Shown in pieces: positions 500 to 50,588 of a stretch of 64,000 nucleotides of DNA (its first letter is position 1; every line of letters begins with the position of its first letter). The position numbers were made by a program, and so were the translations under genes. This DNA is from Azolla caroliniana (Eukaryota > Plantae > Polypodiophyta). The notes below the pieces were generated by a model that was not told where the DNA came from, made no database searches, and worked only from the letters and a program-made list of their open reading frames with translations. The DNA is taken from contig JBHGNT010000012.1 of NCBI GenBank assembly GCA_043228905.1, positions 17,360,001 to 17,424,000 of the forward strand, read 5' to 3'.

Positions 500-965
500 T
501 GTCAGGAACTCTATTAAGGCAGAGAAGGAATTAGTACTAAAAGAAGGATTAGTACTATTGTTGGGGAATAGTACTAAGACAGAGAAGGATTAGTACTATG
601 AGAGGTGTCGAACTTTGAGAGAAGGAATGAGTGAGTGAGAGAGAGAGAGAGAGAGAGAGAATGATGATGCGAAAGATATATGTATTATATGACGGAAGAT
701 ATACAACAGTAGTTAGAAGGCTTAAGACTGGCGTTGAACCGATTTGGTTCGAACTAATGCCTTGCGCCTCCTTTTATAGTGTCTTCAGGAATACTCCTGA
801 AGTTTCTAGAATGTTCCAGAGAAATCTGGAATATACATCAATTTCCTAATAAAACCTAAATGAAAATAATATCCTTCAAATTACAACTCATAACCTAATG
901 GTAAAGTCTCGACCCGTGTAACAAAAGGTTATGGGTTCGAGTCTAGTTATGACATAGTTATGACA
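500..965 (-). repeat. 3' LTR of chromovirus
   Basis: TGTCAGG...ATGACA, direct repeat of 5803-6293. Confidence 0.97.
884..956 (+). promoter_or_regulatory. tRNA-like Pol III internal promoter (A box and B box) inside the LTR; copies at 6219-6272 and 45051-45105
   Basis: TAACCTAATGG (891-901) and GGTTCGAGTCT (934-944), starts 43 nt apart as in tRNAs; each is one mismatch from consensus TRGCNNARYGG / GGTTCGANTCC. Confidence 0.6.
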
Positions 966-3900
966 CTATCCCCCCTTTAAAACGACGAGTTTCACGAGTC
1001 GTTTTGGATTGAGGACCCGGTTTCTCGGGATATCGTCGATGGAAGTCTTCTAGAAGAGCACGAGCATTGGTCACATTCTCGATCGGTTCCCAAGTACGCT
1101 CGCTGGGACTATATCCTAGCCAATCGACTAGATAGTAGAGCTTGTTGCGAACAATCTTGGAATCGAGGATGGCAGCGACCTCATACTCAGGTCCATCTTC
1201 GAGCTCGATAGGAGGTGGAGGTTGTATAGTACGTCCTGGGATAGTGCTCTCGTGATAGGGTTCGAGGAGAGAACTATGAAACACCGGGTGTATCCGAAGT
1301 TGCGGAGGTAGCTCGAGACGAAAAGCGACATCATTAATCTTCCCGATAATACGGAAAGGACCTAATCGTCGATAATCCAACTTCTCACATGGGCGAGTAG
1401 TCTTGATGTGTCGTCGTAGCAGCCACACCCGATCTCCAATGTTAAAACTGGATGGAAGTCGATGACGATCTGCGTAGTCCTTGTGTGATTGTTGAGCTTG
1501 CTGGAGTTGAGTAGATAAATCCGCTTGTATCTTGCGTAACCGCTCCAAACGATCCTCCGCGCAAGGATTTGTGGACACTTCTGGGGTTTCAAGGACACAC
1601 CACCGGGGATGATATCCCGTATAAGCGTAGAATGGCGTGACTTTAGTCGATGCGTGGATAGCGTTATTATAGGCAAATTCGGCGAACGGAAGAATATCTG
1701 TCCAGTCATTCTGATGATAGTTGAGAAAGCACCGCAGATACTGCTCCAGTGTTTGATTTGTTCGTTCGGCTTGACCGTCGGTTTGTGGGTGGTAGCCGGA
1801 GGAGAGGTTACAAGTGACCTTCAGCATTTTAAAAAGGTGCTTCCAGAATTTTGACACAAACTGGGGTCCACGATCGCTGATGATATTATCAGGGAGTCCA
1901 TGATGCCGACATACTTCCCGCATGACAATTTCGGCGGTGTCTTCACTAGATATTTCTTTAGTACATGGTAAGAAATGAGCCATCTTCGTATATCGATCCA
2001 CCACTGTGAGAATCGCACTGAATCCCTTAGAGACTGGAAGATCTGTAATGAAGTCAAGAGCAATGGATTGCCATGGCTTGCTTGGAATTGGTAATGGTTC
2101 TAATAAACCATATGGATGATGTCTTGGCATTTTCGCTCTGCAGCATGTATCGCAAGTCCGAACAAAATCTTCGACAAATTGTCGCATACGGGGCCACCAG
2201 AATGATCGTTGTACTAAATCTAATGTTTTAGTACTACCAAAATGTCCTGCTGTATATGTGTCATGGCAGTTTTGTACTACTCGAAGGCGGCAAGAACCAT
2301 TAGGAACATACAAAAGTTCTTTAAAGAAGAGTAATCCATCACAGTATTTGAATTGCCGATAATCCGTACCTGGTGATTGTGATTGTGAACATGACGCTCG
2401 AGAGGGGTCAATTTGTGCTAGTATAGCTTGGGCGAAAGCGTCAGTCTTCAAGTCCTCACGTATAGTATTGGTAATGTCGGAATCCACGGGCATGTCAAAG
2501 ATCTGTGCTGCTTGCAGTCGTGCTGGACCCAAGATTACTTGCTTCTGGTTATCGAAAGCTGGCTCACCGGGACGTGGTGTTAGATACGAACGCCGTGATA
2601 ATGCATCTGCCTTCCCTTGGTGCTTCCCCGGACGATATGTAATTTTGAAGTCGAAGCGTGTGAGGAAATTGGCCCACCGAGCTTGACGTCGATTCAGTAC
2701 ACGAGCATCTTGAAAGTAGGCAAGGTTCTTGTGGTCACTGAATACAGTGACCTGATGAGGAGATCCCTCCAGGAAATGCCTCCATAGCATAAAAGAATCA
2801 GCTATTGCTAATAGCTCTTTATCATGAATTTCGTAGTTGATTTCGGCGGCGTCAAACTTACGGGAGTGGAAAGCCACAGGATGTAGCTTCTCGTCGTTAC
2901 CCTGTTGTGACAGAATGCTCCCCAATGCGAAATCCGATGCATCAGCTTCGATAATGAATGGTTTTTCCGGATCCACATGACCTAAAATTGGAGCTGATGT
3001 AAACGCCTTCTTAAGACTCTCGAAAGCCATGTCCGTCTCTTTAGACCAAATGAATGATTGTCCCTTCCTGGTGAGCTGTGTGAGAGGCAGCACAATTTTT
3101 GAGTAATTTTGTATGAACTTCCGGTAGAAATTTGCAAAGCCTAGGAAGCATTGCACATCCCGCACCGAACGCGGAGTGTGCCATTCTATCACCGTTTTGA
3201 CCTTGGCTGGGTCCATAGATATGCCTTCTGAGGAGATGACATAGCCGAGAAACTCTACTTGGTTGCACCCGAAACTACATTTCTCTAACTTTGCATACAG
3301 ACCATGTTCTCGAAGTCGTTTTAGTACTAATAGTACATGAGAATCATGTTCTTCTTGGGTCTTTGAATAAACCAGTAGATCATCCAAATAGATGATCAAA
3401 AAATCATCCAAGAGGTCTCGAAATATATCATTCGCCATGTGCTGGAAGACTGCCGGCGCATTAGTGAGTCCGAACGGCATGACCGTATACTCGAAGTGCC
3501 CATATCTGGTGCGAAACGCGGTCTTCCATTCATCTCCTGGTCGGATCCGTACGAGGTTATAGGCTCCTCGTAAGTCGATCTTCGTGAAGAACCTGGCACC
3601 GTTGATCCGTTCTAAAAGACTTGAGATAAGGGGAAGAGCATACCTATTTCTTACTGTGACCTTATTCAAGCCACGGTAATCTACAACGAGTCGAAGCGAG
3701 CCATCTTTTTTCTTGACGAAGAAAATGGGTGCGCCGGCTGGAGATTTCGAATGCCGAATGAAACCGTTCTCCAAATTCTCCTCTATATAGGCTCGAAGGA
3801 CTTCTAGCTCGGTTGGTGACAAATTGTAGATCGGCCCCCATGGCGGCTCTTTTCCCGGTTGTAAGTCGATGGCGCAGTCGTACGGCCGATGATGAGGAAG

Positions 3901-4554
3901 TGTGTTGGCTTGTACTTTATCGAACACATCAACATACTGACGATACTTCTCGGGAAGTTGAACGGTGGACTCCTCTTTGGTGGTGCTGGAGGGTTGTACT
4001 GATATTGCAAAGAGAAACATTTCCTCCTTGCGCCCTTCCTCACGCAACTGACGTAGCGAAATGGTTGCAACCTTCTGGGTAGATCCTTGGGTTTGTCGCA
4101 ACCGGATTTCCCTTGTCCTCCAATCTATGTCTGGGTCATGTAACTCGAACCATGGTAATCCTAAAACTATGGGATGTTCTGGAATACTAATAATATTAAA
4201 TGATACTACACATGTTAAGTTATCTAGGACAATATTAACGGGTTCCGACTCTTCTATGATATTACCAGAAGCAATGGGACGACCATCAATGACTACTACT
4301 GAGGCTGGACATGGGAGCTTTCTTAGAGATATCTGATGAGCTCGGGCAAAATTCCTATCCATGAAGCAAGAATTAGCTCCGGAATCTAGAAGGGCTAAGG
4401 TATGTACTGGAGGGGTACTTTTAGTACTAACTGCTACTTGGACTACGAACACATCACTAACTTGCTTAGAGGGAATGGAACCACTAATGGGCTGCACAGA
4501 TCTAGGGCTGTCCAACCAAACGGCTCCTATTTTGGCTGGACTTAGTCGTTTAAC
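958..4554 (-). CDS. pol: Ty3 pol (protease, RT, RNase H, integrase, group I chromodomain), intact, probably entered by -1 frameshift
   Basis: LLDSGA protease, YLDD RT, DAS RNase H, H-H-C-C and DDE integrase, GPF motif, EYEVAAIL...YLVDWLGY...TWEP chromodomain. Frame is open from the slippery site at 4554; stop lies inside the 3' LTR. Confidence 0.95.
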   Translation of the reverse strand, partial: VKRLSPAKIGAVWLDSPRSVQPISGSIPSKQVSDVFVVQVAVSTKSTPPVHTLALLDSGANSCFMDRNFARAHQISLRKLPCPASVVVIDGRPIASGNIIEESEPVNIVLDNLTCVVSFNIISIPEHPIVLGLPWFELHDPDIDWRTREIRLRQTQGSTQKVATISLRQLREEGRKEEMFLFAISVQPSSTTKEESTVQLPEKYRQYVDVFDKVQANTLPHHRPYDCAIDLQPGKEPPWGPIYNLSPTELEVLRAYIEENLENGFIRHSKSPAGAPIFFVKKKDGSLRLVVDYRGLNKVTVRNRYALPLISSLLERINGARFFTKIDLRGAYNLVRIRPGDEWKTAFRTRYGHFEYTVMPFGLTNAPAVFQHMANDIFRDLLDDFLIIYLDDLLVYSKTQEEHDSHVLLVLKRLREHGLYAKLEKCSFGCNQVEFLGYVISSEGISMDPAKVKTVIEWHTPRSVRDVQCFLGFANFYRKFIQNYSKIVLPLTQLTRKGQSFIWSKETDMAFESLKKAFTSAPILGHVDPEKPFIIEADASDFALGSILSQQGNDEKLHPVAFHSRKFDAAEINYEIHDKELLAIADSFMLWRHFLEGSPHQVTVFSDHKNLAYFQDARVLNRRQARWANFLTRFDFKITYRPGKHQGKADALSRRSYLTPRPGEPAFDNQKQVILGPARLQAAQIFDMPVDSDITNTIREDLKTDAFAQAILAQIDPSRASCSQSQSPGTDYRQFKYCDGLLFFKELLYVPNGSCRLRVVQNCHDTYTAGHFGSTKTLDLVQRSFWWPRMRQFVEDFVRTCDTCCRAKMPRHHPYGLLEPLPIPSKPWQSIALDFITDLPVSKGFSAILTVVDRYTKMAHFLPCTKEISSEDTAEIVMREVCRHHGLPDNIISDRGPQFVSKFWKHLFKMLKVTCNLSSGYHPQTDGQAERTNQTLEQYLRCFLNYHQNDWTDILPFAEFAYNNAIHASTKVTPFYAYTGYHPRWCVLETPEVSTNPCAEDRLERLRKIQADLSTQLQQAQQSHKDYADRHRLPSSFNIGDRVWLLRRHIKTTRPCEKLDYRRLGPFRIIGKINDVAFRLELPPQLRIHPVFHSSLLEPYHESTIPGRTIQPPPPIELEDGPEYEVAAILDSKIVRNKLYYLVDWLGYSPSERTWEPIENVTNARALLEDFHRRYPEKPGPQSKTTRETRRFKGGIVS
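4503..4554 (-). promoter_or_regulatory. Candidate -1 programmed ribosomal frameshift signal (G UUA AAC plus 11-bp stem, possible pseudoknot)
   Basis: Slippery heptamer 4554-4548, 6-nt spacer, stem GUCCAGCCAAA/UUUGGUUGGAC (4541-4531/4520-4510); pol is in the -1 frame and open across the site. Confidence 0.8.
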
Positions 4555-5711
4555 TCTTCTTCTAATTGGCTAAGGACATCAAATTTGTTTGCGAGATTCG
4601 GACTATTAGTACTATTAGGACTATTATGACTATGAGGATTATCAGAGATTCCTACTGACATAGACTCGGGTTTAGTATAGTCAGAACTAACAATGACTTG
4701 GTTTACCTGCCTTCTTGGTCTATGGGGACAGTTTATCGCGATATGCCCTGGTCCACCGCAATAAAGGCATAATCGGTTTGTTCGGCGTCGTTGCTTTTCC
4801 TCCTCCGATAGCGGCCCACGACGACGTGTAGTGTCAATTTCCATTGGAGTTGGAGTACTTACTGGAGGCGCATTATGTGACTCCCTTTGAAAAGGTTTCG
4901 CTACCATTGAGGCATAGGTAGGCTCGGATCTTGCCCTCGGCATCTGAAATTGTCGTTCCGAACGTCGCTCGAAGAGGCGGTTGTCACATCTGACCGCTCG
5001 ACTGATTGCTTCTGTTAATGATTTTGGCTCTTCAGGGAAAGTCAAGAGTAAATCCTTGACATCGTTGCGTAGACCATAGCGGAACTGCTCCATCAATGCT
5101 TGATCATCCCAGGGGATATCGGCGGCGAGTAGGCGGAAATCTGCAGCATATGCGGAGGCTGGACGGTCACCTTGGCGTAATCGCCGGATTTTGTTGATTG
5201 CAGTCCTTATGCTGTCAGTATCTCCAAAACATGCTTTAAACTCACTTATGAATTCTTCAAAATTATTTAGTACTGGAGATTCCTTTTCTAGTAGCGGTGC
5301 GAACCATGCTAATGCTGAGCCAGTTAACAACGTGCCTACTAAACCCACTCGTGATGCATCGGTGGGATATCGGGACGGATGCATTTGAATAACTAACCGT
5401 ACCTGGTTAAGAAACCCTCTAAACTGCGATCACGTTCCATCGAACTTCGTGGGAAGGCCAATCTTGGGTTCTTTATGAATCCCTTGTGCTCCGTGCCCTT
5501 GTTGTTGCATTGCTACGATGGTTGCTTCGAGTTGTTGCACGCGTAACGCAAGTTCCCCATGCTGTTGTTGCGTTTGCTGCTTTTCTAAGGAAATTTGCTG
5601 AAGATCCCCCAACAAGCGTTGATTTTCTTGTTCCAAAGCATGAAACTTCTCTTTCAAGCATTGAAATTCCGAGAAAACGGATTGATACTCTTCAGCGCTA
5701 ACGGTGGCCAT
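4542..5711 (-). pseudogene. gag: Ty3 gag (sushi/PEG10-like capsid plus CCHC knuckle) with a single premature TGA at 5430-5432
   Basis: ORFs 5430-5711 and 4542-5384 are in the same frame (KFDGT*SQFRGFLNQVRL); CLYCGGPGHIAINC knuckle. Confidence 0.92.
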
Positions 5712-5788
5712 GGGATGAAGGAAAAGGGAAATAAGAGACTAGTAGGAAAGGAGAGAGACAGAAGGAAGAGGGAGACTAGTAGGAGGGA

Positions 5789-5800
5789 AAATCGGTTCAA
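5789..5800 (-). promoter_or_regulatory. Self-priming primer-binding site (non-tRNA)
   Basis: UUGAACCGAUUU lies 2 nt after the 5' LTR and is the exact complement of AAAUCGGUUCAA (6073-6062), ~33 nt downstream of the LTR TATA box. Confidence 0.85.
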
Positions 5801-5802
5801 AC

Positions 5803-5935
5803 TGTCAGGAACTCTATTAAGGCAGAGAAGGAATTAGTACTAAAAGAAGGATTAGTACTATTGTTGGGGAATAGTACTAAGACAGAGAAGGATTAGTACT
5901 ATGAGAGGTGTCGAACTTTGAGAGAAGGAATGAGT

Positions 5936-5995
<60 letters not shown>

Positions 5996-6293
5996 TGCGA
6001 AAGATATATGTATTATATGACGGAAGATATACAACAGTAGTTAGAAGGCTTAAGACTGGCGTTGAACCGATTTGGTTCGAACTAATGCCTTGCGCCTCCT
6101 TTTATAGTGTCTTCAGGAATACTCCTGAAGTTTCTAGAATGTTCCAGAGAAATCTGGAATATACATCAATTTCCTAATAAAACCTAAATGAAAATAATAT
6201 CCTTCAAATTACAACTCATAACCTAATGGTAAAGTCTCGACCCGTGTAACAAAAGGTTATGGGTTCGAGTCTAGTTATGACATAGTTATGACA
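5803..6293 (-). repeat. 5' LTR of chromovirus (TATAAAA at 6106-6100)
   Basis: Direct repeat of 500-965; TATA box on the - strand. Confidence 0.97.
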
Positions 6294-6323
6294 GTGGGCT
6301 TAGTGGATTTTTTAAACCACACA

Positions 6324-6517: not shown

Positions 6518-9500
6518 TCACGTGATACGTGTGAAAGTGAGTAGTGACTCTCGATGTTCAAGAATTTTACCAATGAATGTTGCAATCGAGAGTGCACATT
6601 GTGGTTGTGAGAGGAATTCATGCAAAGATTGGGCTCGATCGAAGAGATGTGGAAAGCATGGTCGAATATGATCAAAGGCAGAGCATTGTATCAAAGTGTG
6701 ATACTCAGACTCGCGAACTTGTTTAGGGCAAAGTGTGCATAGCCGACCACTCTCATCACTTGTACCCCAACGCCCTGTTTCACATCGCAATGCATGTGAG
6801 CTAAGTCGCATGGAAGCAATGGTTCGAATGGCAGATAACGGTATGGGCTCTAACATGTATGGATGTGTACGATTTCCCCGTTCCGCAAAGAATATGGTTT
6901 TGTAGTTAGGTGCAACATGTGTAGTATAATGTGTGAAGCGTGAGCCTCCACATTTGTCCCATGTCATGATACATTGGCGTTGCAAAAATGCCTCATTTAC
7001 AGAGGAATCTAATGATGCATCATGAAGCAAGTGTCTCGCATCCCATCTACCAAACCATTTTTCTATATCTTGCATCCAACCGGAACACAAAATTTTGCTT
7101 TTATGCGTCTTTTGGATCTTTTTGCTTGCTTCCCACGCAATTCTAGGAAGTCGATGTGAGGGACTTTTTTGAACCTTAAGCATGTATTCAACAACCCTTT
7201 CCATGGCCATGATCTCAATGGGAAGCGATCCCGTCTCAAGGAGGAGGAGGGTGTAGGGCGTTTGTTTCTTAACTTGTAGAAACTTGGTAAGAAAATGCTT
7301 TTGGACATTTTCAAACTCTTTCCACATAGACTTAGGGATGCTACCGCCCCATACTTCCACCCCATAGAGAAGAACTGGTGTCACCAAAGTGTCAAAAAGA
7401 TATTTCTTGAGGACCCAACACTTAATATCTCCAAGATTGCATGTGTTCTCAAATGCATAGTATGCTCGTTTGCCCGCCTCTAAGCGGCGTGTAGCACATT
7501 CATTCCATCTATGATTTGAAGGAACTTCAAGGCCAAGATATTTGAAGCTTTCCACACATTCAAGTGGCTCATTGTTGTACATAATGCATGGTTTATCTCT
7601 TTTTTGGCTCTTCACAAGCATAATCTTTGTTTTAGAACTATTGACACTTAATTTAGTATGCATGCAAAATTTTTCCAATGCCTTCATAAGCTTTTGTGCA
7701 TCTCCTAAAGTATTTGCAAAAAGCACTACGTCATCTGCATATAGCAAAAGCATAATCACAACATTCCCAATGGCAACTTCTTCAACACATTCTTCCTTTG
7801 CAAACTTGGTAACCATTTCTTCCAATTCATCAATGCATAGACCAAATAGTGTTGGTGAGAGTGGGCATCCTTGCTTAACACCAATAGTGCTTTTGAAAAA
7901 ATCTGAAAGTTTATCTTTCATGCGCACACAACATATAACCTTCTCATAAATTCGGGAAATTGCAAGCATATATTCACTTGGCACCTCAAGTTCTTCCATT
8001 CGCCTCCAAAGATGCTCACGAGGTACCATATCAAAAGCTTTCTTGAAGTCTGCAAAGCAACAATATAAACCTTTACCTCTAAGGCGACTTTCCTCCATTA
8101 ATACTCGAAGGGTGATAAGGTGATCAATGGTGCTATGGTGTTTCCGAAAGCCAGCTTGTCCATAAGCTCTCTTACCACTTTTTTCAGCCCATACACTTAT
8201 CTTTGATTCCATTATACATCCAAATAGTTTTGCCATTAATGAGCCAACCATGATGGTTCGATAATTGTTTACATTATTTATATCTCCACTTTTATGTAAA
8301 GGTTTGATCCAATTTGTAGTCCAATCGTACGGCATACCATGTTGCAATGCATCATTAAACATATCGCTTATCCATATATGTGCTTCCTTTCCCGTCCATT
8401 TGAGCATTTCAGCCTTTATACATTGAAGATCGCTTGCCTTTCGAGAGGCCAATTTCTTAAGTCCTATGCATATATCTTCAATTGTAAAGAAGGAAGGCAT
8501 ATGTGAAAGAGAACCATAACACATCATCTTTCCGGCAAGAGATAACTCATATAAATTCTTACAATGCATAGACAAGTCGTGAAGAGTTAAGTCACCATAA
8601 CTCTCAACACGTTTTCCCTTTAGATTTCCCCAAAATTTAGCACATGCATGTGCTTTCTCTTGCGTTTGGATAAATTGTTGAGTAACTTCCCATATTCTTC
8701 TCTTTCTTTGAATAAGCCTTTTATACTCATGCAAATGCTTTTGGTAATTCTCTTTATCCTTAACTACATCCAAAACCATAAGGCACTTTCGAGCTTCACG
8801 ACATTCTTTATCAAACCATTTTTTCCTAAGTTTCTTGGTGCATTTCCAAGATGTGCGGTTGGTCGAAAAACATTTGTTTGTACATGAGAGAATGACTTTC
8901 TTGAAAGCTTCCCATTTGCATTCTAGTGTGGCACCATGTTGTATCTTTGTCATTTGTAACATATCCTCAACCATCTTGGAATACATGGGTGCTCGCTTAA
9001 GGTTCATGCTCAAGTGCGGTTGTTTATTATCTTCAATAGCCTTCTCACAATCAAACCTATGCATACATTTGAGATCAATACATAAAGGCCTATGATCTGA
9101 TTCCGGTGTCCATTCACCAAGTGAGAATTTATGTATACGATCCAAAATACCTTCGGAAAGTAGCACATAATCAATCACACTATTTCCGTTGTATTTTCTA
9201 CATGTAAAACCATTAGTGTTGGGCCATAAGGAAATACCATTTGCAATAAGCAATCCGGTACTATTGCACATTTGTAGGAGTAACTTCCCAAATTGGTCCG
9301 GATCTTTTTCATCGCTAGAAGAGCGGTTATACATTTGCATATCCTCTTGCATCCTTGAGATATGTGGCATGAAAGATTCTTGTGAATCAAGTTGGAAACT
9401 TCTTGTACGAGCATTCATGTCACCAAAGACAATAACTTCCCCTTTGGATTTGAAATAAGCAATATCATCTTCTAGATTGGCAAACGGTTGATCTTTATCC

Positions 9501-9898
9501 AAACAAGCATAAAAGTTAGAATCTTGATGAGGAATGTAACATCCAACAACAAAAGTGGGCAAATCATTAGGTGTTTCTATTTTGAGCCATATGTAGCATT
9601 TATGTTCATCATTTTTTATGATTGACACATATTTCTCTATTTCCGTCTTAATCAAACATGCCACCCCTCCTTGTCCTCTTCTTTGTCTTGGATTTTTCTT
9701 CCATATCAAAGAGTGTACATTATAGTTTCCTAAACCTTGAATCCTTTGAGTATCATGCTCCCATGTTTCAACAAGAAGTGTGATATCCGAGTCATTGGTG
9801 AACTCCTCTATGCCAAATCCCGCATTCCATGGGTATCCATTGCAATTCCAAAAGCATAGTCGTAAAAGGCGTGGGTTAGTCTCATAGATCGCGTGTCC
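6518..9898 (-). CDS. LINE ORF2 (AP endonuclease, reverse transcriptase, C-terminal CCHC), uninterrupted but lacking an upstream AUG
   Basis: LCFWNCNG, LVETW, GDMNA, IDY, SDH endonuclease motifs; QGCPLSP, YADD, YLG RT motifs; CTLC...HTLIQC. Open from 9898. Confidence 0.93.
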   Translation of the reverse strand, partial: GHAIYETNPRLLRLCFWNCNGYPWNAGFGIEEFTNDSDITLLVETWEHDTQRIQGLGNYNVHSLIWKKNPRQRRGQGGVACLIKTEIEKYVSIIKNDEHKCYIWLKIETPNDLPTFVVGCYIPHQDSNFYACLDKDQPFANLEDDIAYFKSKGEVIVFGDMNARTRSFQLDSQESFMPHISRMQEDMQMYNRSSSDEKDPDQFGKLLLQMCNSTGLLIANGISLWPNTNGFTCRKYNGNSVIDYVLLSEGILDRIHKFSLGEWTPESDHRPLCIDLKCMHRFDCEKAIEDNKQPHLSMNLKRAPMYSKMVEDMLQMTKIQHGATLECKWEAFKKVILSCTNKCFSTNRTSWKCTKKLRKKWFDKECREARKCLMVLDVVKDKENYQKHLHEYKRLIQRKRRIWEVTQQFIQTQEKAHACAKFWGNLKGKRVESYGDLTLHDLSMHCKNLYELSLAGKMMCYGSLSHMPSFFTIEDICIGLKKLASRKASDLQCIKAEMLKWTGKEAHIWISDMFNDALQHGMPYDWTTNWIKPLHKSGDINNVNNYRTIMVGSLMAKLFGCIMESKISVWAEKSGKRAYGQAGFRKHHSTIDHLITLRVLMEESRLRGKGLYCCFADFKKAFDMVPREHLWRRMEELEVPSEYMLAISRIYEKVICCVRMKDKLSDFFKSTIGVKQGCPLSPTLFGLCIDELEEMVTKFAKEECVEEVAIGNVVIMLLLYADDVVLFANTLGDAQKLMKALEKFCMHTKLSVNSSKTKIMLVKSQKRDKPCIMYNNEPLECVESFKYLGLEVPSNHRWNECATRRLEAGKRAYYAFENTCNLGDIKCWVLKKYLFDTLVTPVLLYGVEVWGGSIPKSMWKEFENVQKHFLTKFLQVKKQTPYTLLLLETGSLPIEIMAMERVVEYMLKVQKSPSHRLPRIAWEASKKIQKTHKSKILCSGWMQDIEKWFGRWDARHLLHDASLDSSVNEAFLQRQCIMTWDKCGGSRFTHYTTHVAPNYKTIFFAERGNRTHPYMLEPIPLSAIRTIASMRLSSHALRCETGRWGTSDESGRLCTLCPKQVRESEYHTLIQCSAFDHIRPCFPHLFDRAQSLHEFLSQPQCALSIATFIGKILEHRESLLTFTRIT

Positions 9899-10609
9899 CT
9901 ATTTGCCTACATTTCCATCTTTAGGCACATCCTTAACCTTGTTTTTCAATCTTTCTTCATATGCTTTACGACGAGCATTTTGTTGTGAGATAGTACGATC
10001 TTCACTCACAAAGCATTGTGTACCTTTGAGGTATACCCAACTATTTTCGAGTATGATCCGCCGCTTTGTATCATCTGTCATTGTGCATACAATAGGCCTT
10101 TCTCCAGAGCGAGTAACACCATGTTTCCCAACTCGGTGTGCCCCATATACATTCACATCTGGCATCCCATAATGCATGCTAAAAAATTCACCAATGGCCT
10201 TTCCAAGGGATGCGGGTGTTTCCATACTCTCTTCTTTAATCCCACGGACGACAATGTTCTTTGATCGTCGTTCGCGTTCTTTCAATTCTCGGACATCTAT
10301 GCTTTCTATATTCTTCTCTTGATGCATCACATGCATATTAGATGAGTTTGATAACACATCCCCACCACATACATCGGCCCATGACTTCGTTGTACATACA
10401 TTTTTCATCTCACTTACATCCCGCCTCATCGTATCCAATTTTTCTTCTTTTAATGCTTCCTTTAACTCAATCTTGTTAAGGCGCTCATTTGTTTCAAATG
10501 AAGCTCTTTTACATTCTTGAATCTCTTCTTGAAGTTTTGCAACCACTTGTTTAAGACTTTCATTCTCAATGACAACACTTTGGAGCTTAGTATTCTCTTT
10601 CATTAACAT
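9899..10609 (-). CDS. LINE ORF1 (coiled coil plus RRM-like region)
   Basis: N-terminal heptads followed by ERERRSKNIVVRGIKE...AHRVG...RPIVCTM...VSEDRT, typical LINE ORF1 layout; may be 5'-truncated. Confidence 0.75.
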   Translation of the reverse strand: MLMKENTKLQSVVIENESLKQVVAKLQEEIQECKRASFETNERLNKIELKEALKEEKLDTMRRDVSEMKNVCTTKSWADVCGGDVLSNSSNMHVMHQEKNIESIDVRELKERERRSKNIVVRGIKEESMETPASLGKAIGEFFSMHYGMPDVNVYGAHRVGKHGVTRSGERPIVCTMTDDTKRRIILENSWVYLKGTQCFVSEDRTISQQNARRKAYEERLKNKVKDVPKDGNVGK

Positions 10610-10623
10610 CCTAATCTCTTCAC

Positions 10624-10665
<42 letters not shown>

Positions 10666-10983
10666 CACTTATGAATAACACAAGATGGGGGATGAGTAAG
10701 TATATTAACTTAGCATTATCATCATCAAATACAAAAATACCCACAATGAGGTATATATACATCTCATGTGCAAAGATGCACATGTGTGAGTAGAATATAG
10801 GTACTAATGTGTAAGTCCTATATTAAATGTACTTAGGAGTGGAGGATCTAGAATATCCCACTTAAGTACAAGGTCCTATTTAAGGCGTTATAATCAACAC
10901 TTCGAACTAGATTCTATTTAGGTAACTACGAAGTTACATGGTTGACTAACTAACTAAACTAAGTTGAGCTTGATCTCTCAACA

Positions 10984-12327
10984 ACTCCTAACTCGGGACG
11001 ATGTATGAAAGATAAGGACTTTAGTTTTCGCTAGATTCACTACCAGTCCTCATTGTGTACAAAAGCCATCTAGGGCATTAAGATGCTTTTGTAGGTCGTG
11101 TTCCGACTCCGAGAGCAAGACAATGTTGTCTGCGTAGAGTAAGAGACTAACTTGTGTATCCCCAATAGCTACTCCCTTGCCTCCCTTACGAGCAATAAAA
11201 TAAGCCATCTCATCAATGTAGATCCCAAAAAGAGTCGGTGATAGGGAGAAACCCTGTTTTACACCAATGGTGCTAGTGAAACAATCGGATAGGTCACTTG
11301 GGCATCTTACGCACCCAGAGACTTGCTCATATGGGGTATAAATGGCCCAGATCATGTCATTTGGTATCTCGAAGCTCTTAAGTCTATCAAACAACCTCTC
11401 CCTAGGAACTGTGTCAAAGGCTTTGCGTAAGTCCACAAAGCAACACTATAGTTTCTTCTTACGAGCCTTCGTCTGGTCAATTAAACACCTAAGTGTGAAG
11501 ATATGGTCAATAGTGGAGAAGACTCAGCTAAAGCCAACCTGCTCATGTGCTTGAAGACTTAATGTTTCCATATAATCGTTAAGCTTCACTTCTATTACTG
11601 CATCATATAGTTTAGCGAGCGTATGACCTATCATAATGGTCCTATATGTATTTGGGTCCATTGGGTCCCCTCCTTTATGTATAGGGGCCACTGTGTTCAT
11701 GGTCCATTATGGTGGAAAACCCTCAGCGAGGGCATGGTTGAATATTAGATTGAGAAAGGGGGCTAGGCACTCTCTAGCACATATGATGTGCTCGGCTCGC
11801 AATCCTGTGTGGTCCATGGATTTCCTATGTTGTAAATTTTTTTATGACCTTCGTGACCCTAGAGGTCGTGAAAAGTGTCCCCATGGTAGGTCGAGGTGTG
11901 GAAGGCATTGGAATGGGTCATTGGTTTAGGACATGGTAGAGTCTCTCGATATATGTATGCCAAATATTAGGATCCTCAATGGGTGTTTGTGGTCGTGGTT
12001 CTCGTAGTCTCTTCCATGCAAGGGCACAATCCCTACTCATGAGACTATAGTAGAGTTCCCGATATTGAGATGCTTCCCAAGCTCATCTTTTACGACGTGT
12101 CATCTTGTGCATCTCTTTGCGAGCCCGTACTGAGGAAATAGTACCACTAAGTCACGACACTTTAAGTTGTCTATACAACTATCTACGATCCTCATCATAC
12201 CATTTGTTTTGTGGCATAGACCCTATTCTACTATGATTGGAGTGTTTCGTGTATGGGAAGCTATTAATTGCTGCTGAGTGAAGGATGTGTGCAAGTTCTG
12301 TAGTGAGGTTCTCTAAAGGCAAGGAAG
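10984..12327 (-). mobile_element. Degenerate LINE RT fragment (host of the Copia element and Ty3 element 2)
   Basis: DLRKAFD, GVKQG.SLSP, LYADN motifs with stops; resumes at 22233. Confidence 0.85.
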
Positions 12328-12820
12328 AATCATGTTACCGGCCGGCAAAGGAGTTCAGAGTGGGAAACAGAGAGTTATTTAAGTAGTAGGAATGTGGTTG
12401 TAATTAAGCTATGAGTGTGGACGGACGGACCGGAAACGGTATGCCGTTCCGGATCCGGACCGATCCCGAACAGGTGCGGATGGCACCGTTTTGTAATACA
12501 GACCGGAAACCTATTTAAAGGCCCGGATACAATGTAATCAATAGCGGTTAATTAATGAAAGCTTAAGCGTTGTTATCTCTCTGTGTTAATTGCCGTTTTG
12601 TCTTAATTGTTATATCTTACGCGTGTGTTATGAAAGACGATCATAATAAGTAACTTAATTAAGTAGGACTAAGCGTTGAGGCAGATCCGGTTGCCGTAAC
12701 ACCCTTTGGGGAAGTGTCTTCCGTAGACACCCTGTGTTAGGCCATTGTCCGGCCCTAAGAGTTAACACAGTTTTTGGCGACCACGATTCCTGTTTTTGCA
12801 GCGAACGACGGCACGAATGG

Positions 12821-15800
12821 ATGTCTAGATCAACGCACGACCTGGTTACAGATCGAACTCGACGCCTTGCCGAAAGGCAAAGGAGACGCGAGGCTTTCCA
12901 GCAAGCGGCGCAGGAAATTAGAGCGGATCGCTCGTTTTCCAACGTAATCCGGAGAGTAGCGGAGGACTCCCTTTGGTTATAGCAAACATCGCACCCGGAC
13001 GACGGGAGCAGCCTAAGCAGCCTCTGGGAAACCGAATCCCTTCTCCACGCGTTGGTAAACGGAGAAGGCGAAGCAGAAGCCTTTTCAGCATATGAATCAG
13101 ACTCCGAAGGGGAATGCAGCGTGCACACGAACTACCGTAGCAGCAACGAAACCCCGGGCGGACAGGAGGACGAAGGATCAGATACCTTACCGACACCGGA
13201 TCCGGAAGTGCTAACGCTGGAACCCCCAGAACTAGCAGAAGAAGAGCGACCTCCGACACCGGAAGTCGAAGAGGAGAGACCTCCGTCACCAAAAGAAGAG
13301 GAAAAACCACCGACGCCGGAAACAAATTGGGAAGGACCACCGACACCGGAGAAAATTCCGGAACAAGCACCAACACTGCCAGCCTGCGCACCGATACCGG
13401 ACGACGACATGCCGTTCCAGTACTCGAAGTATAGAGATGATCCGGACGCGGAAGCTCATGTGCACGCCTTTGAACAGACATGGGAAGCCAACCATGTGTC
13501 CTAGCGATTGACCCCGGAGGAAGAAGAACGCTCTAAGATAGCGGAATTTGGCGTCACATTGGAGGGACCGACAACAAGATGGCGCCGGACGCAGGACCCG
13601 TCTACCATCAACACCTTTGCAGATTTAAAAGCTAAATTCTTGCATTTTTTTCAAAAGGAGGTGGACCAGAACGTAATGGTAGGCTTATTTTATACCATCC
13701 GACAAGAGGTAGGGGAGAGCATTCCCCAATTTGTCATCCGGTTTCAACGGATGCATAGTCAGCTTGCCCACGCACCCCCGGAGGAGGAATTACGGACTAT
13801 ATTCCTAAACGCGCTCCGAGAACCTCTACGCACGGTTTGCATGGTAATTGACTTCCGCACAAGTACCATCGACCAGGTCATTGACCGGGTGAGAGAGATG
13901 GAAAAGACAAGCTCCTGGCTCACATTGGGAGCACTTCAACGGGCGTTACCGTCCGATGAAGACCTTCGGTTTCGGCAAGCAATACAGTGCACAACCTGCT
14001 TGAATTCCGGACACTCGGCTCTAGAATGCACTATGAGGACGCAATGTGTAATCTATCAATCCAAGAGACATACGACGGATAGGTGTGAGTATAATCTGTT
14101 GAACTGGCAAGCACAGCCCGTCCGACAAATTGAGCCACGCAGCAGCCGGGATGAAGAAGACGAATGTTGGCGGCGAATGGACCGCGACCGACCGGCACAG
14201 GATGTCCGGCATGGCGATCGACGGGAAAATGATGTCCGGTATGGTGATCGGCGGGATAACTATGACCGGCATGATCGGTACCAGGGTTACAATAGATGAT
14301 ACGAACATTACGACCGGGAGCACTCCCCCGGGTATCGTCAGCAACGGGAGGAATACGGCAGATATAACGGGAAACCCCGTCAAGAGTACCATAATAAGAA
14401 GAGCTATAACAAAAAATGGCATTTTAAAAAAGGCGGCTACCCCCGGGATCCGGAACAAGGAGCTCCAAGCAGCCAACCGGTACAAAACCCCGCGCGTACC
14501 GCAGGACCTGTCCCGGGTACAACAGACAATGCCGAATCTAGCAATACCCGGAAAGCCTACTGCTACTACTGCTGACAGGAAGACCATTATAGTAACCAAT
14601 GCCCGGTGATGAGCTATGAAAAACGACCGGCGGTAAATATGGTAGTCCCTGAGGTGGCAGATCTGCAGCAGGTGACCACAAGGTCAAAGGGCATGGCCAA
14701 GGAATGGGAGACGCAGGAGACCATCCGGAAACAAGCAACGGAATGGGTAAAGAAAGCAAACGAACAGAATGTCACAGACTTACAGCGGCAAAAGAAGAAC
14801 ACCGCAAGGCTTGCCGGCGGTAGTCACTCTGAGAATGAGACATGGCAGGCGTTGCAAGAGTGCCAGATTACGTTGCCACTAGGAAGACTCCTACAACTCG
14901 TGCCAAGATTCACGGAAGGACTGAAGACGGCCATGACGGCAGGAGAACCATCACCGGCACCGGTACTCTTCTCGAATCCGGAGGAGGGACCAACGGTGGT
15001 GGACACCAGCAGTCCAGTAATCACTGCCATTGTAAAAGGGAAAGAACTCCCCGGCACAGTTATAGACGGAGGCTCTGGGGTGAATGTAATAAGCCTCAGG
15101 ACGTGTGATGCCCTAGGAATCCACGAGTGGGAGCCGTGTCCGTTCTGGTTGCGGATGGCCGATACAAGCTCAGTACGGCTGACAGGATTAATACGGAAAT
15201 TAGAAGTCACCGTCGGCGGTCATACATTTTACATCTCAACCGTAGTGCTACAATTACAGGCACAAGGCGCATACCCGCTATTGCTGGGGCGGCCATGGTT
15301 GAAAACAACACATATCAAACAGAATTGGCGGAAAAAATAATTACCTTCCGGCGAGGAAAAGCCAAGGTATGGGTACCAACACAGCCAAGGACGAGCACTG
15401 GCAAGGAATGTACACCGTTGTATGCGGAATGCGTCAACATGCTAGAAGGGTTAGCGGACGAAGAAGAAGCTCAGTACCTGCAGGAAAACCCGAAGATCAT
15501 ACCCCTCTTCGAAATTGACATTGCCGAAGCAGTAGCACCATACTTACCGCAACCGGAAGAGGCTGAAGCAGAACCGGATAAAGACGCAATTCGGGAGTTA
15601 TGGCAAGCGCAAGAAGCGTTGGAACGGGAAATGGCCGTTTCACAGTGCGTAAAATCGTCGCAACTGGAAGAGGTGAACCTAGGCACCACGGACGAAGCAA
15701 AACCGGTGCACATCGCCAAGGAGATGAAGTCTGAAGACAAAACGGCGATGATCACACTTCTCACGGAATTCCACGATGTGTTCGCCTGGTCATACGAAGA

Positions 15801-18596
15801 TATGCGAGGACTCGACGCTCAGTTATACCAGCATCAGGTGCACTTGAGCAAGGACGCAAAACTAGTGGCACAAAGACGGTACCGGATGAATCCCAATTAT
15901 GCCGCCAAAGTCAAGGAGGAAATCGACAAACTGCTAAGAGTTGGCGTTATCCGTTCGGTAAAGAAAGCGACATGGTTGAGCCCGATCGTAATCGTACCGA
16001 AGAAGAACGGAAAAATTCGAGTTTGCGTGGACTACCGGAAACTCAATGCGGCTACGGTAACAGATGCGTTTCCACTTCCGTTCACAGATGGAGTGTTGGA
16101 TGCCGTCGCCGACCATGAGGTCTATAGCTTCCTAGACGGATTCATCGAGTATAAATGCACCCCGACGACCAAGAGAAAACGGCATTCGTCACCGAATGGA
16201 GGGTGTTTGTGGCCGTGGTGATGATGTTCGGACTCAAAACGGCACCGACAACATTTCAACGAATCATCATGGAAATCTTTAGTGAATATATACCGGCTTT
16301 TATGCAGGTTTTCCTTGACGATTTCGCCGTCTATAGCCGGGAGGAGGACCATTCTCAGCACCTCCGTCTTTGTCTAGAAAAGTGTAGAGCGTACCAGCTA
16401 AGCTTGAATCCAGCAAAGTGTGTATTTGGCGTGTCTAGTGGAACTTTATTAGGACATATTGTGAGCCAGGAAGGTATTGCAGTCGACTCGGACAAAGTGA
16501 AAGCCATATTAGAAGCACCGGCGTTGGCAACGGCAAAGGCATTAAGCCGGTTCTTAGGCCAGATCCGGTGGCACAGCCGGATGCTCCGATACTTAGCCGA
16601 CCTGGCTACACCGTTGCATGCCGCCGTACATCGGACACCATTCCAGTGGACCGACACCGAGGATAGAGCGTATAGGGCCCTCAAGGTACTATTGTCGCAG
16701 GCACCGGTAGTACAACCTCCGGATTGGAGTAAAGAATTTCACGTGTTCGTAGACGCCTCCGACATCGCAATCGGAAGCGTACTTATGCAGCTTATGGAGC
16801 CAAAATGGTACTGGCCAGTGTACTATGCCAACCGAAAGCTATCCCAAGCAGAACGAAACTACTCTACCACGGAACGGGAAGCCCTAGGGATGATCTACAG
16901 TGTGACAAAGTTTCGGCATTATTTATTGGGAAAGAAGTTTTCCTTCCATGTAGATCATTCGGCACTCCTTTACCTAGTGTCCAAAGCGTCACTCATTGGC
17001 AAATTGGCCCGATGGACCTTACTGTTACAGGAGTTCGAGTTTGAAATATTCCACCGACCCGATATACAGCATGCCGTGGCGGATTACTTAAGCCGATTAG
17101 AGTCTGGAGAGACGGGTGACGGAGTAGCGGATGAGTTTCCGGATGCAGAGCTATTTCGAGTCACTACGGAGACGGCAGTAGATGACACGGTGGCACAGGA
17201 AGACAAATGGCTCACAAATATGCACCAATTTTTGAGCATAGGACTGCCTCCGGAAAAGATGAACCGGGACGAACGGAAACGCCTGGCGGTGCAAAGCCGA
17301 CATTTCTGCTTACTACAAGACACACTGTACCACAAGGGCGCGGACGGCATATGGAGACGGGCGGTGCGCAACGATGAAAAGGAACTGATACTGAGGGAAG
17401 CCCACTGCGGAGTTGCCGGAGGTCACTATGCCGGAGATGCGACGGCCAGGAAAATATGGCAAAGTGGCCTATGGTGGCCAACGACACTTAGAGATGTGGT
17501 ACGATATGCAAAAGAATGTGACCTATGCAAGAGAATGGGTCAGCCAACGGAGCAGGCTCGTATGCCACACCAGCCGGTACTACCACTCGAGCCATTCCAG
17601 AAGTGGGGGCTGGACTTTGTAGGACCCTTCAAGCCACCGGCAATGAGAACGGGTAATCGGTACGTCATCGTTGCTACGGATTATTGCACGAAATGGGTGG
17701 AGGCCAAAGCATTAAGGGATAACACCGCTGCGTCAACGGCGAAGTTTCTATATGAGTACATATGGTGCCGTTACGGATGCCCAATTGAATTAATAAGCGA
17801 CCAAGGGGGGCACTTTCTCGGCCAAGTAGTGGAAAGCCTGACGACATTCTATGCCGTTGTACACAAACGGAGCACACCTTACTATCCACAGGCGAATGGT
17901 TTAGCAGAATCAACGAACAAGACGCTCCAGAATATCCTCCGGAAGATCGTCAACGAAAACCGGACGGATTGGGACACAAAGCTACATAGCGCGCTTTGGG
18001 CATACCGGACGACATACAAAACGAGCATCCGAACAACACCGTTCCGGTTAGCGTTCGGACTAGAGGCGGTCATGCCGGTAGAATTCCAAGTACCCAGCTT
18101 ACGGATCCAGCTACGGGAACGGCTGAACGAGAAGGAGTCGGAGGCAATACGGTTGACAGCGTTGTGTGAGCTCGAGGAACAACGACTGGCTAGCATCCTG
18201 CATTTAGAATTGGAGCAACGACGACGGAAAGCATTTGTCGACCGGCACAGGAAAGGAAACGAAAAAATGTTCGCCATCGGCAAACCGGTGTTAGTATTTC
18301 AGACCCGGATGGGCAAGATGCCGGGTAAACTACAGTTTAGATGGACCGGACCATATTGGTTAACACGGGAGTATAATGGGTCCTACCAGTTAGGGACACT
18401 TGCCGGCGAAGTGCTAGGCAAATGGGTCAACGGATTCCGGTTGAAGCCATATAGAGGACCGATGCCTAAGAACCCATTTGAGCAAAGGACCGACAGCAGT
18501 GAGGGAAACGGCAACCACCAAGACGGCAGACAAGGCGAGCTGATAACTGGGGAGAATGAGGCCGGTAAGGGTCCGAGAGGACCAACGGACAAGTGA
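12821..18596 (+). pseudogene. gag-pol of element 2 (three CCHC-type knuckles, PR, RT, RH, IN) with stops and frameshifts
   Basis: CTTCLNSGHSALEC, VIDGGSG, CVDYRKLN, FLDD, DAS, H-H-C-C, GLDF/ISDQG/ESTN, WTGPY; in-frame stops at 12980, 13502, 14297; frameshifts near 15335 and 16140. Confidence 0.93.
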
Positions 18597-18972
18597 CGTC
18601 AAACTAAATTAATTATTGTTTAAAAAAAAAAAAAAAAAAAACAATCATGCAAAAGCGAGGAATGAATGGATGAAAGAGCGAGGAGCGAAAAGGTATGTAG
18701 TGGGCATTTAAAGCGCCACCATAGGACATAATGCTATTTGAGTACATGACATGCACACACTCGAAAAAGGCGCCAGAATGCACAGACAAAAACCATTGCG
18801 CGTAGAGACCCTTTACTTTCGCGAACCCAGGAGCACAGAAGCACCAAGACGCTGCAAGATCATCAGACGAGAACATGTGCACAGAGAACCCCCGCCTTCT
18901 GAACTCTCTCTCTCTCAACCTCACTCTCATCACCATCCAACCTCGCCACCGCAATCCGACCTCGACACAGAA

Positions 18973-21738
18973 ATGGACCCGCAAACGCTGTCGGAAGCCA
19001 CCAAGACATGGCTAAAGCAACACGGGCTCGAGGGCTTCTTGATGATGATGGAAGTACCGCCACACAAAGAAGCCGACAAAGTGATCAAAGAAATCGACAC
19101 AGAGGTCATAACGGCAGAGGCGATTCGAGCGTTAACAGGCCTTCTGGAGGGAGGCATACTCACGATCGACAATCCAACCCCGGAGCAACTCATCAGGTAT
19201 TTTGGTGAGTATTCTCTAGCCAGCAAGGGCTACCGGACACAAGACGGCGGAGACATGCTGTTCCGCAAGATTGCCCGTGTGCTCCACGAGTACGGCCACG
19301 TGTACCCTAGACCCCCTGTCATGCCGCAGAACAGGGCAGGGATGATCATTGCCACCTATGAAGGGATCAAGGTGGATTGGCCGGTATTGATCGCAAACGG
19401 GTTGTGTGCGGCCATCGAGATCGTCAGAGGCAAAGACGGCAAAGAAGGCCGAGACGGACGGAGGATATGGCACGCCGTAACGCAGTGGCTCACCTTGCTT
19501 GTGCCACCCGTCCAGCCCGTCCAGCCCAAGAAGCGAGGAAGAGTGGCGGATGGCACCCCAAAGACGGCTTCCAAACGACAACAGTTGTTGGCCTCTAAGG
19601 CCTCTAAGGGAAAGGCGAGGGATGCAGAACAGGCGGCAGCAGGAAGCGGCAGCCGAAAGCGCCCAACGGAGGCGCAGGAGGAACCACCAGCATGGCCCGT
19701 AAAGGTCACACTCTGCCGATCGGTGAATAGAGAAGCGGACCCCTTGGCGGCAAAACTCAATGCCGGAGCTTAGGAGGAGGAAATAGAGGAGGAGCCTACG
19801 GAGCACCTCCAACGACGGTCGTTGGCAAGGACCGTTGAGACAGCCGGGAAACGTTCGGACCCTCAGACGGAGGGAACACCGGCTCCCCTTAGTGAGACTC
19901 CCACGCCAAGGAAGGAACCGGAATCGGTGTGCATGGCACCGGAAACAGAAGCCCCGGCACCACCGGCAACACCAGAAAGGTCAATGCAGCCTCCCTCGGT
20001 CAGCCAAGAAGAAGCGCAAGGGGAACCAGGACAATAGGGTGGTCCACGGGCAGAAACGGAACTGCAACTCGGCGCAACCAGGCGGGACCACCCCTCTACA
20101 AGTGAGCCCATCTGTCAAACCTCCGTGCAAGCACAACAAGGCACCGGTAGCCTGTGCCTCCGATGGATAGGCGAGCAGATAGCTGGAGCAGTGGGGTATA
20201 TTGAGGCGGAAGAAAGAGCGCAAAGCGAACGGTTGCTCGTCACAACCGAACAACTAGAGACGGCCCGGTCCAGAATCTGGTGCCTTGAAAAAGACTTGGA
20301 TCAAGTCACGACAGAGATGGCCAAAATGGCCTGAACGGCAACACATATCCAATCACCGGTGACTCCGGTAAGTTTACAGAATAAGGAAACGGAACGACCT
20401 GTACATAGCAATAAGACCCCGGCCACGGAAACCATTCCGACGAGAGATGCGGCGCAAGCCCTGGAGCTTGCAGAATTGAGAGATGAACTTGCCGCACAAG
20501 AAGCGCTAAGGAGCCGTGAACAAGAATTGAAGATAGCGGCCGAAGCCGAATTAAAGAAGACTGCTGAGAACCTCCGCCGGGCAGAGGAGAGCCTCCGGAA
20601 AGGCCATCAAGCGTACGACCGGCTAAAGGAGGAGAAAGACAAAGTGCTGCAGGAAAAGGACAAGTTGCGAAAAACGGCGGAAACAGAGATTGAACGGCTA
20701 AAGGAAGAGCTCTGCCAACAGAAGGACCGCGAGGACCGGGCCCGTCGTTAGATCAACGCACGGCTCAAGCAAAAAACGGATGATTTTGAGCACCTGCACC
20801 GGGACTACAAACGGCTGGAAACGGAACATAAAGAACGGATGGCCGAGCTCCAACAGGCAGTTGATCGGGCCGCGATGGCGATCGCCGACGAACGGGCGGA
20901 AAATACAAGACGCTTGGACAAGGCGGAGAAGGTCCGGATGGAGCTCCAGAGGCAGCAACAGGAAGACAAAGAGAGAGCGTCAACAGTATTGCAGAAATTA
21001 CAAAGCACATATCAAAGGCAATTGACGGATTACAAGGCGCAGGCGGAGGACAACGTCAAAATCATCAAACAACTGAAGGAGGAACGGCAAGCAGCGGAAA
21101 CCAAATCGCAATTGGGAACGAGCCGGATTCAGTCCATCCTCCGGGCATGGCTGAATCAGACAAAACACTTGATTGATGAAAGCTCCGTAAAATGGTGGAC
21201 AAAGTGGGCACAAAACGCGGCGGAACTCCAGTTGCTTCGGGCGGATGTGGCAAATCGGCGGAAGGAAGGAGGTGATTGTTATACGTTGACTTCCGAGGAC
21301 TTCACAACCATACGGGACGAGCTGGCCGACGACTTCCAAGTCCTGGCAGATGAACAGCTGGCGCAGGTCAGGCAGCTCGTAGCTCAGCTAGACAATGATA
21401 GGCTGGACGCTCAAATCCAGTTTGAAAGCTACAAGCGGTCCTAGGTGCGGGAAGAAAAAGCATGGGAAGCGGCAACGGTTAACCTTAGTGATGAGGAACC
21501 GTCGCCGGCTGAGGGCCTGCCGGGAACCAGTCAACCGGAGACCACTACGACGCAGGGAGCAATGACGGAGACGCCGGTGTCAGAGCAACAAACGGAGGAG
21601 CAGCCGCAACAGCCACCAACGAACCCGCCGCAGCAGACATCAACAGAGCAACAACAACAACAACAACAACAATCACTTCCAGATGAACCATTGGAGCCTC
21701 TCGAACAAAGCATTCTGGACATTTTGGACGAAGAATAG
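18973..21738 (+). pseudogene. Extra ORF (~920 codons) of element 2: globular N-terminus, low-complexity linker, long coiled coil
   Basis: Six listed ORF segments (starting 18751, 19822, 20125, 20359, 20839, 21445) share one frame and are separated only by single TAG/TGA codons. Confidence 0.8.
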
Positions 21739-22232
21739 CAAGGGTCGGTTGTGGATTCGACGTACAAGGTACTGTCCCACGGGCGTGCCATGTGTTACCG
21801 GCCGGCAAAGGAATCCAGAGTGGGAAACGGAGAGTTATTTAAGTAGTAGGAATGTGGTTGTAATTAAGCTATGAGTGTGGACGGACGGACCGGAAACGGT
21901 ATGCCGTTCCGGATCCGGACCAATCCCGAACAGGTGCGGATGGCACCGTTTTGTAATACAGACCGGAAACCTATTTAAAGGCCCGGATACAATGTAATCA
22001 ATAGCTGTTAATTAATGAAAGCTTAAGCGTTGTTATCTCTCTGTGTTAATTGTCGTTCTGTCTTAATTGTTATATCTTACGCGTGTGTTATGAAAGACGA
22101 TCATAATAAGTAACTTAATTAAGTAGGACTAAGCGTTGAGGCAGATCCAGTTGCCGTAACACACTTTGGGGAAGTGTCTTCCGTAGACACCCTGTGTTAG
22201 GCCATGGTCCGGCCCTAAGAGTTAACAAATCA

Positions 22233-39055: not shown

Positions 39056-39300
39056 GAGGTCAATACCTCATTTGACATATAAATAATATGTGATTAGTGT
39101 CGTATGTGTACGAGGTTAATACCTCAATTGCGTATTACGATCACGTACATATGTTACGTATGCGTATGAGGTCAATACCTCGATTTCGTTGTAAATGATA
39201 TGCATTTGGTGTCATATGCGTATGAGATCAATACCTCAATTCCGTATTATGATTAACCCTTATTTTTGGATGTTTCGTGTGTGTAGAGGCTACATGCCTC
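39056..39300 (+). repeat. Array of five GAGGT-N4/5-ACCTC hairpins, ~56-bp period, in the leader of element 3
   Basis: Hairpins start at 39056, 39112, 39168, 39224 and 39286. Confidence 0.85.
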
Positions 39301-44690: not shown

Positions 44691-45120
44691 TGTCAAGAAC
44701 AGTACTAAGACAGAGAAGGACTTAGTACTAAAAGAAGTATTAGTACTAAGAGAGGTGAAGAACTCTCGAGAGAAGGAAAGAGTGAGTGAGAGGGAGGGAG
44801 AGAGAGATTGAGAGAGAGAGAGAGTGATGATAAGAAAAGATATATATTATGTGAAGAAAATGTACAGTAACTAGGAGGCTTAAGACTGGCGTTGAACTGA
44901 TTTGGTTCAAAATAATGCCTTGTGCCTCCTTTTATAGTGTTCTAAGGAATACTCCTGAAGTTTCTAGAATGTTCCAGAGAAATCTGGAATATACATCAAT
45001 TTTCTATAATAAAACATAAATGAAAATAATATTCTACGTATTATAATGTATAATCTAATGGTCAAGAGCTTGACCTATGTAGCATAAGGTCATGGGTTCG
45101 AGTCTTGCCATATCATGACA
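44691..45120 (-). mobile_element. Solo LTR related to the chromovirus at 500-6293
   Basis: Colinear but diverged copy of the 500-965 LTR; perfect TSD TACGG at 44686-44690 and 45121-45125. Confidence 0.95.
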
Positions 45121-50584: not shown

Positions 50585-50588
50585 ATAG

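Follow-up and report, generated by a model that had tools for sequence, protein, structure and literature searches.

A putative antisense tRNA-type Pol III promoter at the U3 edge of the LTRs of a Tcn1-like chromovirus from Azolla caroliniana

LTR-borne Pol III promoters and the Azolla chromovirus

In the literature searched, Pol III promoters in retrotransposon LTRs have been described in tiny, non-coding TRIMs, in which they are thought to make the element RNA. Helenus TRIMs/TRIMp3 resemble the module reported here in carrying tRNA-derived A and B boxes within the LTR, in the conservation of the box region, and in having no working tRNA (PMC10886601), and the LTR of a Selaginella Helenus element (Helenus-1_SMo) also has a variable-loop pentamer before the B box (PMC10886601, in part). 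Helenus elements are non-coding and under ~1.3 kb, compared with 5.8 kb and gag-pol here, and their boxes lie in sense in the LTR records examined and are proposed to drive the element RNA, whereas those of the chromovirus are antisense (PMC10886601). Unlike Helenus, the chromovirus also has its boxes at the U3 edge, with a TATA box and a self-primer facing the other way. It is not a Helenus member, since it lacks two defining features, a short non-coding body and boxes oriented to make the template RNA. The published Helenus screen kept only TRIMs of <1000 bp, although “not a few LTRs” were tRNA-like, and autonomous partners of Helenus have been argued to need Pol II (PMC10886601). Cassandra, which an earlier note on this DNA had offered as a precedent, is likewise a plant element whose LTR holds a Pol III promoter, but that promoter is of the 5S rRNA type-1 kind and the element is non-autonomous and makes a replicative RNA (PMC10886601); Helenus, with its tRNA-derived boxes, is the closer parallel.

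Simian foamy virus is autonomous, as the chromovirus lineage is, and has A/B-box Pol III units in its LTR beside the Pol II promoter, but these have defined hairpins, terminators, and a small RNA function, whereas neither fold nor terminator is conserved in the chromovirus (PMC3993851, in part). The likeliest functional analogue is the tDNA barrier at S. pombe cen1, which has a full A and B box promoter with TFIIIC/Pol III occupancy, needs both TFIIIC and Pol III, and works in either orientation (PMC2040200, in part). Barrier activity of tRNA promoters has been demonstrated in yeasts, and the cen1 barrier is an experimentally shown case formed by a host tRNA gene at a fixed locus, whereas the module is carried by a mobile element (PMC2040200, in part).

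Tf1-type self-priming and an aromatic cage mark the Tcn1 clade of chromoviruses (PMC6317226, in part), with which the element shares a self-priming primer binding site (PBS), TG...CA ends, a 5-bp target duplication, and a non-seed-plant host (PMC6317226 and PMC2864245, both in part), as well as a group I chromodomain with an aromatic cage (PMC3350952, in part). From its self-primer and cage, set beside the described Tcn1 traits only, we provisionally class the element as a Tcn1-like chromovirus. The portions of these descriptions cited here (PMC6317226, PMC2864245, PMC3350952) carry no mention of a Pol III module. A PCR survey recovered no Tcn1-like clones in ferns (PMC2864245, in part), and if the element is Tcn1 proper, its fern host would extend the range of the clade. 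Among the papers that the literature searches listed, which did not extend to subscription journals or Repbase, none describes a protein-coding plant chromovirus with a tRNA promoter in antisense.

The window, meaning the whole 64,000-nt stretch of A. caroliniana DNA that was analysed, contains a minus-strand Ty3/gypsy element of 5.8 kb that codes for gag and pol and has a chromodomain with an intact Y-W-Y aromatic cage (Y1129, W1150, Y1153). Its features, and those of a solo LTR, are as follows.

495-499 and 6294-6298: 5-bp target site duplication of the chromovirus
500..965, minus: 3′ LTR of the chromovirus, ends TGTCA...TGACA
733..745 (6061-6073 in the 5′ LTR), minus: predicted self-primer at the transcript 5′ end, complementary to the PBS
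771..778, minus: TATA box of a predicted Pol II promoter, which faces away from the module; the A box lies at a distance of 113 nt
799..816, no strand assigned: heat-shock-element-like array, mid U3
846..881, plus: AT-rich sequence preceding the A box, where TFIIIB is predicted to bind
891..901, plus: A box, antisense to the element
926..930, plus: pentamer resembling the tRNA variable loop
934..944, plus: B box, antisense to the element
944..965, plus: 11-nt tandem duplication at the LTR end, absent from the solo LTR and from close relatives, e.g., L001
958..4569, minus: pol (protease, RT, RNase H, integrase, chromodomain)
966..978, minus: polypurine tract (PPT) and spacer to the 3′ LTR
1002..1005, plus: first T4 run past the boxes in the 3′ LTR context
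4542..5711, minus: gag, with a single in-frame stop at 5430-5432
5788..5802, minus: PBS, self-priming type
5803..6293, minus: 5′ LTR of the same element
6219..6272, plus: A box to B box of the 5′ LTR (starts 6219/6262), pointing outward into host DNA
44691..45120, minus: solo LTR with its own 5-bp target site duplication
45051-45061 and 45095-45105: A and B boxes of the solo LTR, 44 nt apart

The A and B boxes of the 3′ LTR start 43 nt apart, and the box positions and the 43- and 44-nt spacings originally claimed hold in both LTRs and in the solo LTR. A strict A+B pattern, whose consensus was picked after the finding was known, and which misses the solo A box (two mismatches), matched two pairs in the window, where 100 block shuffles lead one to expect 0.02; of 20000 dinucleotide-shuffled versions of the LTR, one had an A+B pair. 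With A and B boxes at tRNA spacing and an AT-rich tract upstream, the module appears to have the features of a type-2 Pol III promoter, and if Pol III transcribes it, an RNA of about 120 nt would end at the T4 run at 1002..1005. No good A+B pair was found in the window’s other LTR pairs or at a lone perfect B-box match (37324), which lies inside a short inverted repeat (37316-37343).

Over 490 columns the 5′ and 3′ LTRs differ by a 25-nt gap and two mismatches, and their U3-side 300 nt are identical; judging from these near-identical LTRs, the insertion is very young. The description of the element as autonomous suits the lineage, but not the window copy, whose gag is interrupted. The last pol codons cross the PPT and the stop codon falls in the first 8 nt of the LTR (958-965), as it does in many relatives.

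Between the window and solo LTRs, 10/11 positions of the A box and 11/11 of the B box are identical, against 17/25 between the boxes and 13/21 after them, but mid U3 is kept at 59/62. The sequence between and after the boxes had been said to have changed more than the boxes in the solo LTR, and this holds. Because mid U3 is as conserved as the boxes, this two-copy comparison is weak, and the strong evidence is that from the diverged families. In contigs of sequencing runs X1, X14, and X16 (the last probably DNA) aligned to the solo LTR, G at 45053, the third A-box position, accounts for 80%, 60%, and 99% of depth, respectively; most copies thus carry a better-matching A box than the window copy. 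Positions 45056-45067 have no change of ≥4% in these runs among the rows displayed (all but 8). As deduced from kind-of-change totals, the B-box CpG has neither C>T nor G>A at ≥4% in X1 and X14, while a comparison CpG at 45037-38 varies by 26%/10% and 16%/45% in these two runs; contigs drop rare variants, and the solo-LTR variation is subfamily-level change. Six contigs were aligned for a further run, X15. The chromovirus family is very abundant in sequencing runs under at least five organism labels, and the shares for RNA runs, figures with no bearing on expression, are 0.07-0.14 in six runs and 0.00 in two with the same species label.

Distribution and descent of the module

An alignment of the integrase-chromodomain tail was used as the query against metagenome contigs, and the best 80 of 601 related stretches were retained; the U3 edge adjoins the query match because pol ends at the LTR. 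A fixed motif scan was applied to the 72/80 loci with ≥120 nt downstream, 8/80 being too short. In antisense, the motif was present at 15/18 loci of one assembly set and at 2/54 others, as against 1/18 on the sense strand in the same set and a background of 111/2910 windows. An antisense tRNA-type Pol III module at the U3 edge of a chromovirus, as proposed in the earlier note, is supported by these counts. The two outside matches (L029 and L065) were treated as chance and were not recovered by a subsequent type of scan with a matrix. The module-bearing loci are spread over 11 assemblies whose names adjoin one another and which probably belong to one project.

The matrix, which was trained on these same modules, gave 22 matches in 514,558 bases: 19 in the assembly set and three in the window LTRs, with none in the other 58 loci and one in reversed sequence. 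When one family at a time was left out, the B part scored 16.7-30.5 bits in 20/20 rows and the A part was positive in 18/20. The A-to-B spacing is 43-44 nt in 20/22 matrix matches, and the distance from the B box to the LTR end varies from 16 to 49 nt. Together these results indicate that the module is a mark of about 10 families and not an accident of one. Free-standing SINE-like copies outside LTRs were absent from the 514,558 bases scanned, and scans found no relatives in viral contigs. One contig (L072:1-435) is rearranged, so that a chromodomain fragment lies downstream of the LTR end and of the module's B half.

A quick tree of 955 columns and 23 rows places the module-bearing families in one supported group (8 rows, one of them untestable; SH-aLRT 99). 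It supersedes a 158-column quick tree, from which four loci had been dropped for frameshifts and which was too weak. In L037 the B half is homologous and the A box weak, yet its pol groups with module-free elements, and forcing it into the module-bearing group, which was named after the tree had been seen, is rejected (AU p = 2e-9). Its pol is 60% identical to that of the window, as against 71–85% for the other families compared. Exchange of U3, old losses, or a second capture could explain this locus. At L037:4495-4567 the B box is doubled beside the weak A box. Among the aligned modules, ATGTA at the anticodon-loop position is common to 7/14 rows, which points to a single ancestor for the module. 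Self-priming pairs, each in its own matching version, are present in the window element and in L004, L007, L011, L012, L041, and L017.

Conservation of the putative promoter and of its possible RNA

Between seven well-covered families, mean identity is 0.61 for the A box, 0.90 for the pentamer, and 0.81 for the B box, compared with 0.30 between the boxes, 0.32 after them, and 0.39-0.42 before them; composition alone would give 0.27-0.38. Across these families the boxes are therefore better conserved than the U3 around them, and the best conserved segment is the variable-loop pentamer. The sequence upstream of the A box is AT-rich (0.80-0.89, versus 0.49-0.74 further inward) in 6/7 rows, the exception being L037, and such a tract is the expected location of plant TFIIIB (PMC13578239, in part). 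The upstream CAA motif, prominent in angiosperms (PMC13578239, in part), is not conserved at -10 to -3 in the column profile. The B core is intact in 8/8 contigs with coverage of at least 20 and in 4/10 low-coverage contigs, a threshold set after the fact on rows that are not independent, and this retention suggests selection on transposing lineages. What stays conserved is what TFIIIC and TFIIIB would read.

No working tRNA was recovered. ARAGORN finds none in the window or in 18/18 loci tested, and Rfam gives no tRNA match up to E=10, so the covariance-model similarity that had been proposed as a check is missing. Acceptor and anticodon stems pair at control level (43% and 39%, respectively), for which reason the cloverleaf was set aside as a conserved feature, and overall cloverleaf pairing is 52% against 50% in shuffled sequence (23/500). 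Residual pairing persists in the T stem (69%, most of it G-U) and in the D stem (64%), where the 11-24 pair survives in 17/18 rows, five double changes included. One stretch of pol gives weak matches to Rfam TUG1_3 in both L001 (2824-3063) and L002 (386-603), at E 0.3-0.4 and far under the gathering score.

It is unlikely, although it is the strongest alternative, that the module is an active Pol III gene whose functional product, a short antisense RNA complementary to U3 and the PPT, tunes silencing or reverse transcription. Such a gene would account for the retention of the boxes, the spacing, and the AT-rich tract, and LTR miRNA genes of simian foamy virus depend on A and B boxes (PMC3993851, in part). 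A T4 run lies inside the LTR just after the B box in 4/10 families, but with the first T4 anywhere between +50 and more than +600, neither a poly(T) terminator nor RNA length is conserved, and in 6/10 families the 5′ LTR transcript would enter arbitrary host DNA. A long hairpin of 19 bp is strong in L001, which belongs to the window’s family (z -6.0), and in L007 (z -3.6), and is 72% paired over 18 rows; as a conserved fold, however, this hairpin was rejected, with no coevolution over 10 families and native arms that fold no better than swapped ones (7080/20000 permutations). RNAalifold likewise finds no consensus structure across families. The earlier suggestion of an antisense-RNA role is weakened by the variable terminator and the lack of a shared fold. 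With neither the cloverleaf nor the fold nor the place of the terminator conserved, the target of selection looks to be a DNA promoter rather than an RNA product.

Possible functions of the module

A backward-facing module cannot make genomic RNA and must therefore be kept for another reason. Our preferred reading, to which we give a probability of roughly 0.45, is that occupancy by TFIIIC and TFIIIB holds the Pol II promoter of the element open or shields it from heterochromatin nearby. A single tRNA or SINE head would have been captured into U3; TFIIIC would bind the boxes and load TFIIIB on the AT-rich tract, which lies inward of the boxes. Such a complex in the 5′ LTR would separate the Pol II promoter from host DNA, at a distance of 113-207 nt from the TATA box, and Pol III, if it runs at all, would run outward without colliding with Pol II. 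Group I chromodomains such as that of MAGGY bind H3K9me2/3 and have been proposed to target H3K9-methylated chromatin (PMC3350952, in part), and expression would be favoured for those copies that the chromodomain had put into such chromatin; any Pol III RNA would likely be a by-product. What the sequences show is the presence, position, orientation, and spacing of the module, its conservation across ~10 families, the loss of the cloverleaf, and a separate TATA box and self-primer on the opposite strand; an insulator, as suggested in the earlier note, would fit the geometry of the module. A broader version of this reading is rather doubtful, namely that the module is a portable tDNA barrier of heterochromatin-seeking fern elements, a captured tRNA promoter that was selected across many families, passed to at least one other lineage, and left copies expressible in silent chromatin.

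Several observations weigh against the preferred reading. The aromatic cage is also present in 49/58 module-free relatives, so elements of this kind persist without the module. A complex on the 3′ LTR would lie where the genomic transcript made by Pol II has to pass, and this is a cost. The pentamer matches the B box in conservation, yet lies outside the textbook B box. Residual D- and T-stem pairing and the LTR-internal T4 runs also count against this reading, and the demonstrations of tRNA-promoter barriers covered here come from yeasts. If the module is a chromatin barrier, it would be a direct answer to how heterochromatin-targeting elements stay active, would scatter very many TFIIIC sites through a large genome, and would offer a high-copy natural system for tests of TFIIIC insulators in plants.

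Repurposing of the tRNA-derived motifs, either as a Pol II activator site or as a signal after the PPT on the genomic RNA or cDNA, is improbable. It would suit a pentamer that is both non-canonical and the best conserved segment, and the B box, when complemented to the sense strand, is similar to the core of the PBS; in L004, however, primer and PBS have changed together with the B box unchanged, the distance to the PPT varies by >30 nt, and the A box and the 43-44 nt spacing are retained. Still less probable is that the module serves retroelements that target Pol III, or its own family, as a landing pad or decoy: targeting of Pol III start sites in the manner of Ty3 is known, but neither insertion site in the window has Pol III boxes nearby, no insertion lies upstream of the A box in the three window LTRs or in the relatives’ LTRs examined, and an element would not clearly profit from carrying a landing pad alone. 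A neutral passenger, the remnant of an inserted tRNA or SINE, would be in keeping with B-box decay in single low-coverage copies and with a window A box weaker than many family copies. It is largely refuted by the comparison between families, in which the identity of flanks and spacer, unlike that of the boxes, has dropped almost to the level given by composition.

The predicted self-primer at 6061-6073 lies ~26 nt downstream of the TATA box. The heat-shock-element-like arrays of mid U3 account for 6/8 such 13-mers in the window and occur also at 6127-6144 and 44957-44974 and in L001, L004, and L015; a contig depth peak at 808-825 overlaps the array at 799-816. RY or G-box-like motifs replace these arrays in L007, L010, L012, L014, and L022; the predicted Pol II promoter may be induced by stress or at particular stages and may differ between families. 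The predicted start site falls within an inverted repeat in the window (733-754) and in L001, L004, L007, L011, and L012, and in several families both arms of the repeat are B-box-like. In genomic RNA, the second self-primer copy could be masked at the 3′ end by the U3 half of the repeat.

Elsewhere in the window, a LINE with endonuclease and RT adjoins the chromovirus (6518-10822, minus strand), and three more gypsy-type elements (about 12300-22100, 38300-44100, and 45760-50590) have neither a chromodomain match nor the module. A single-exon PPR gene with an E motif is encoded at 24914-27583 (minus strand), and its best named matches are mostly fern proteins (Ceratopteris, Adiantum; 30–41% identity), with some from lycophytes.
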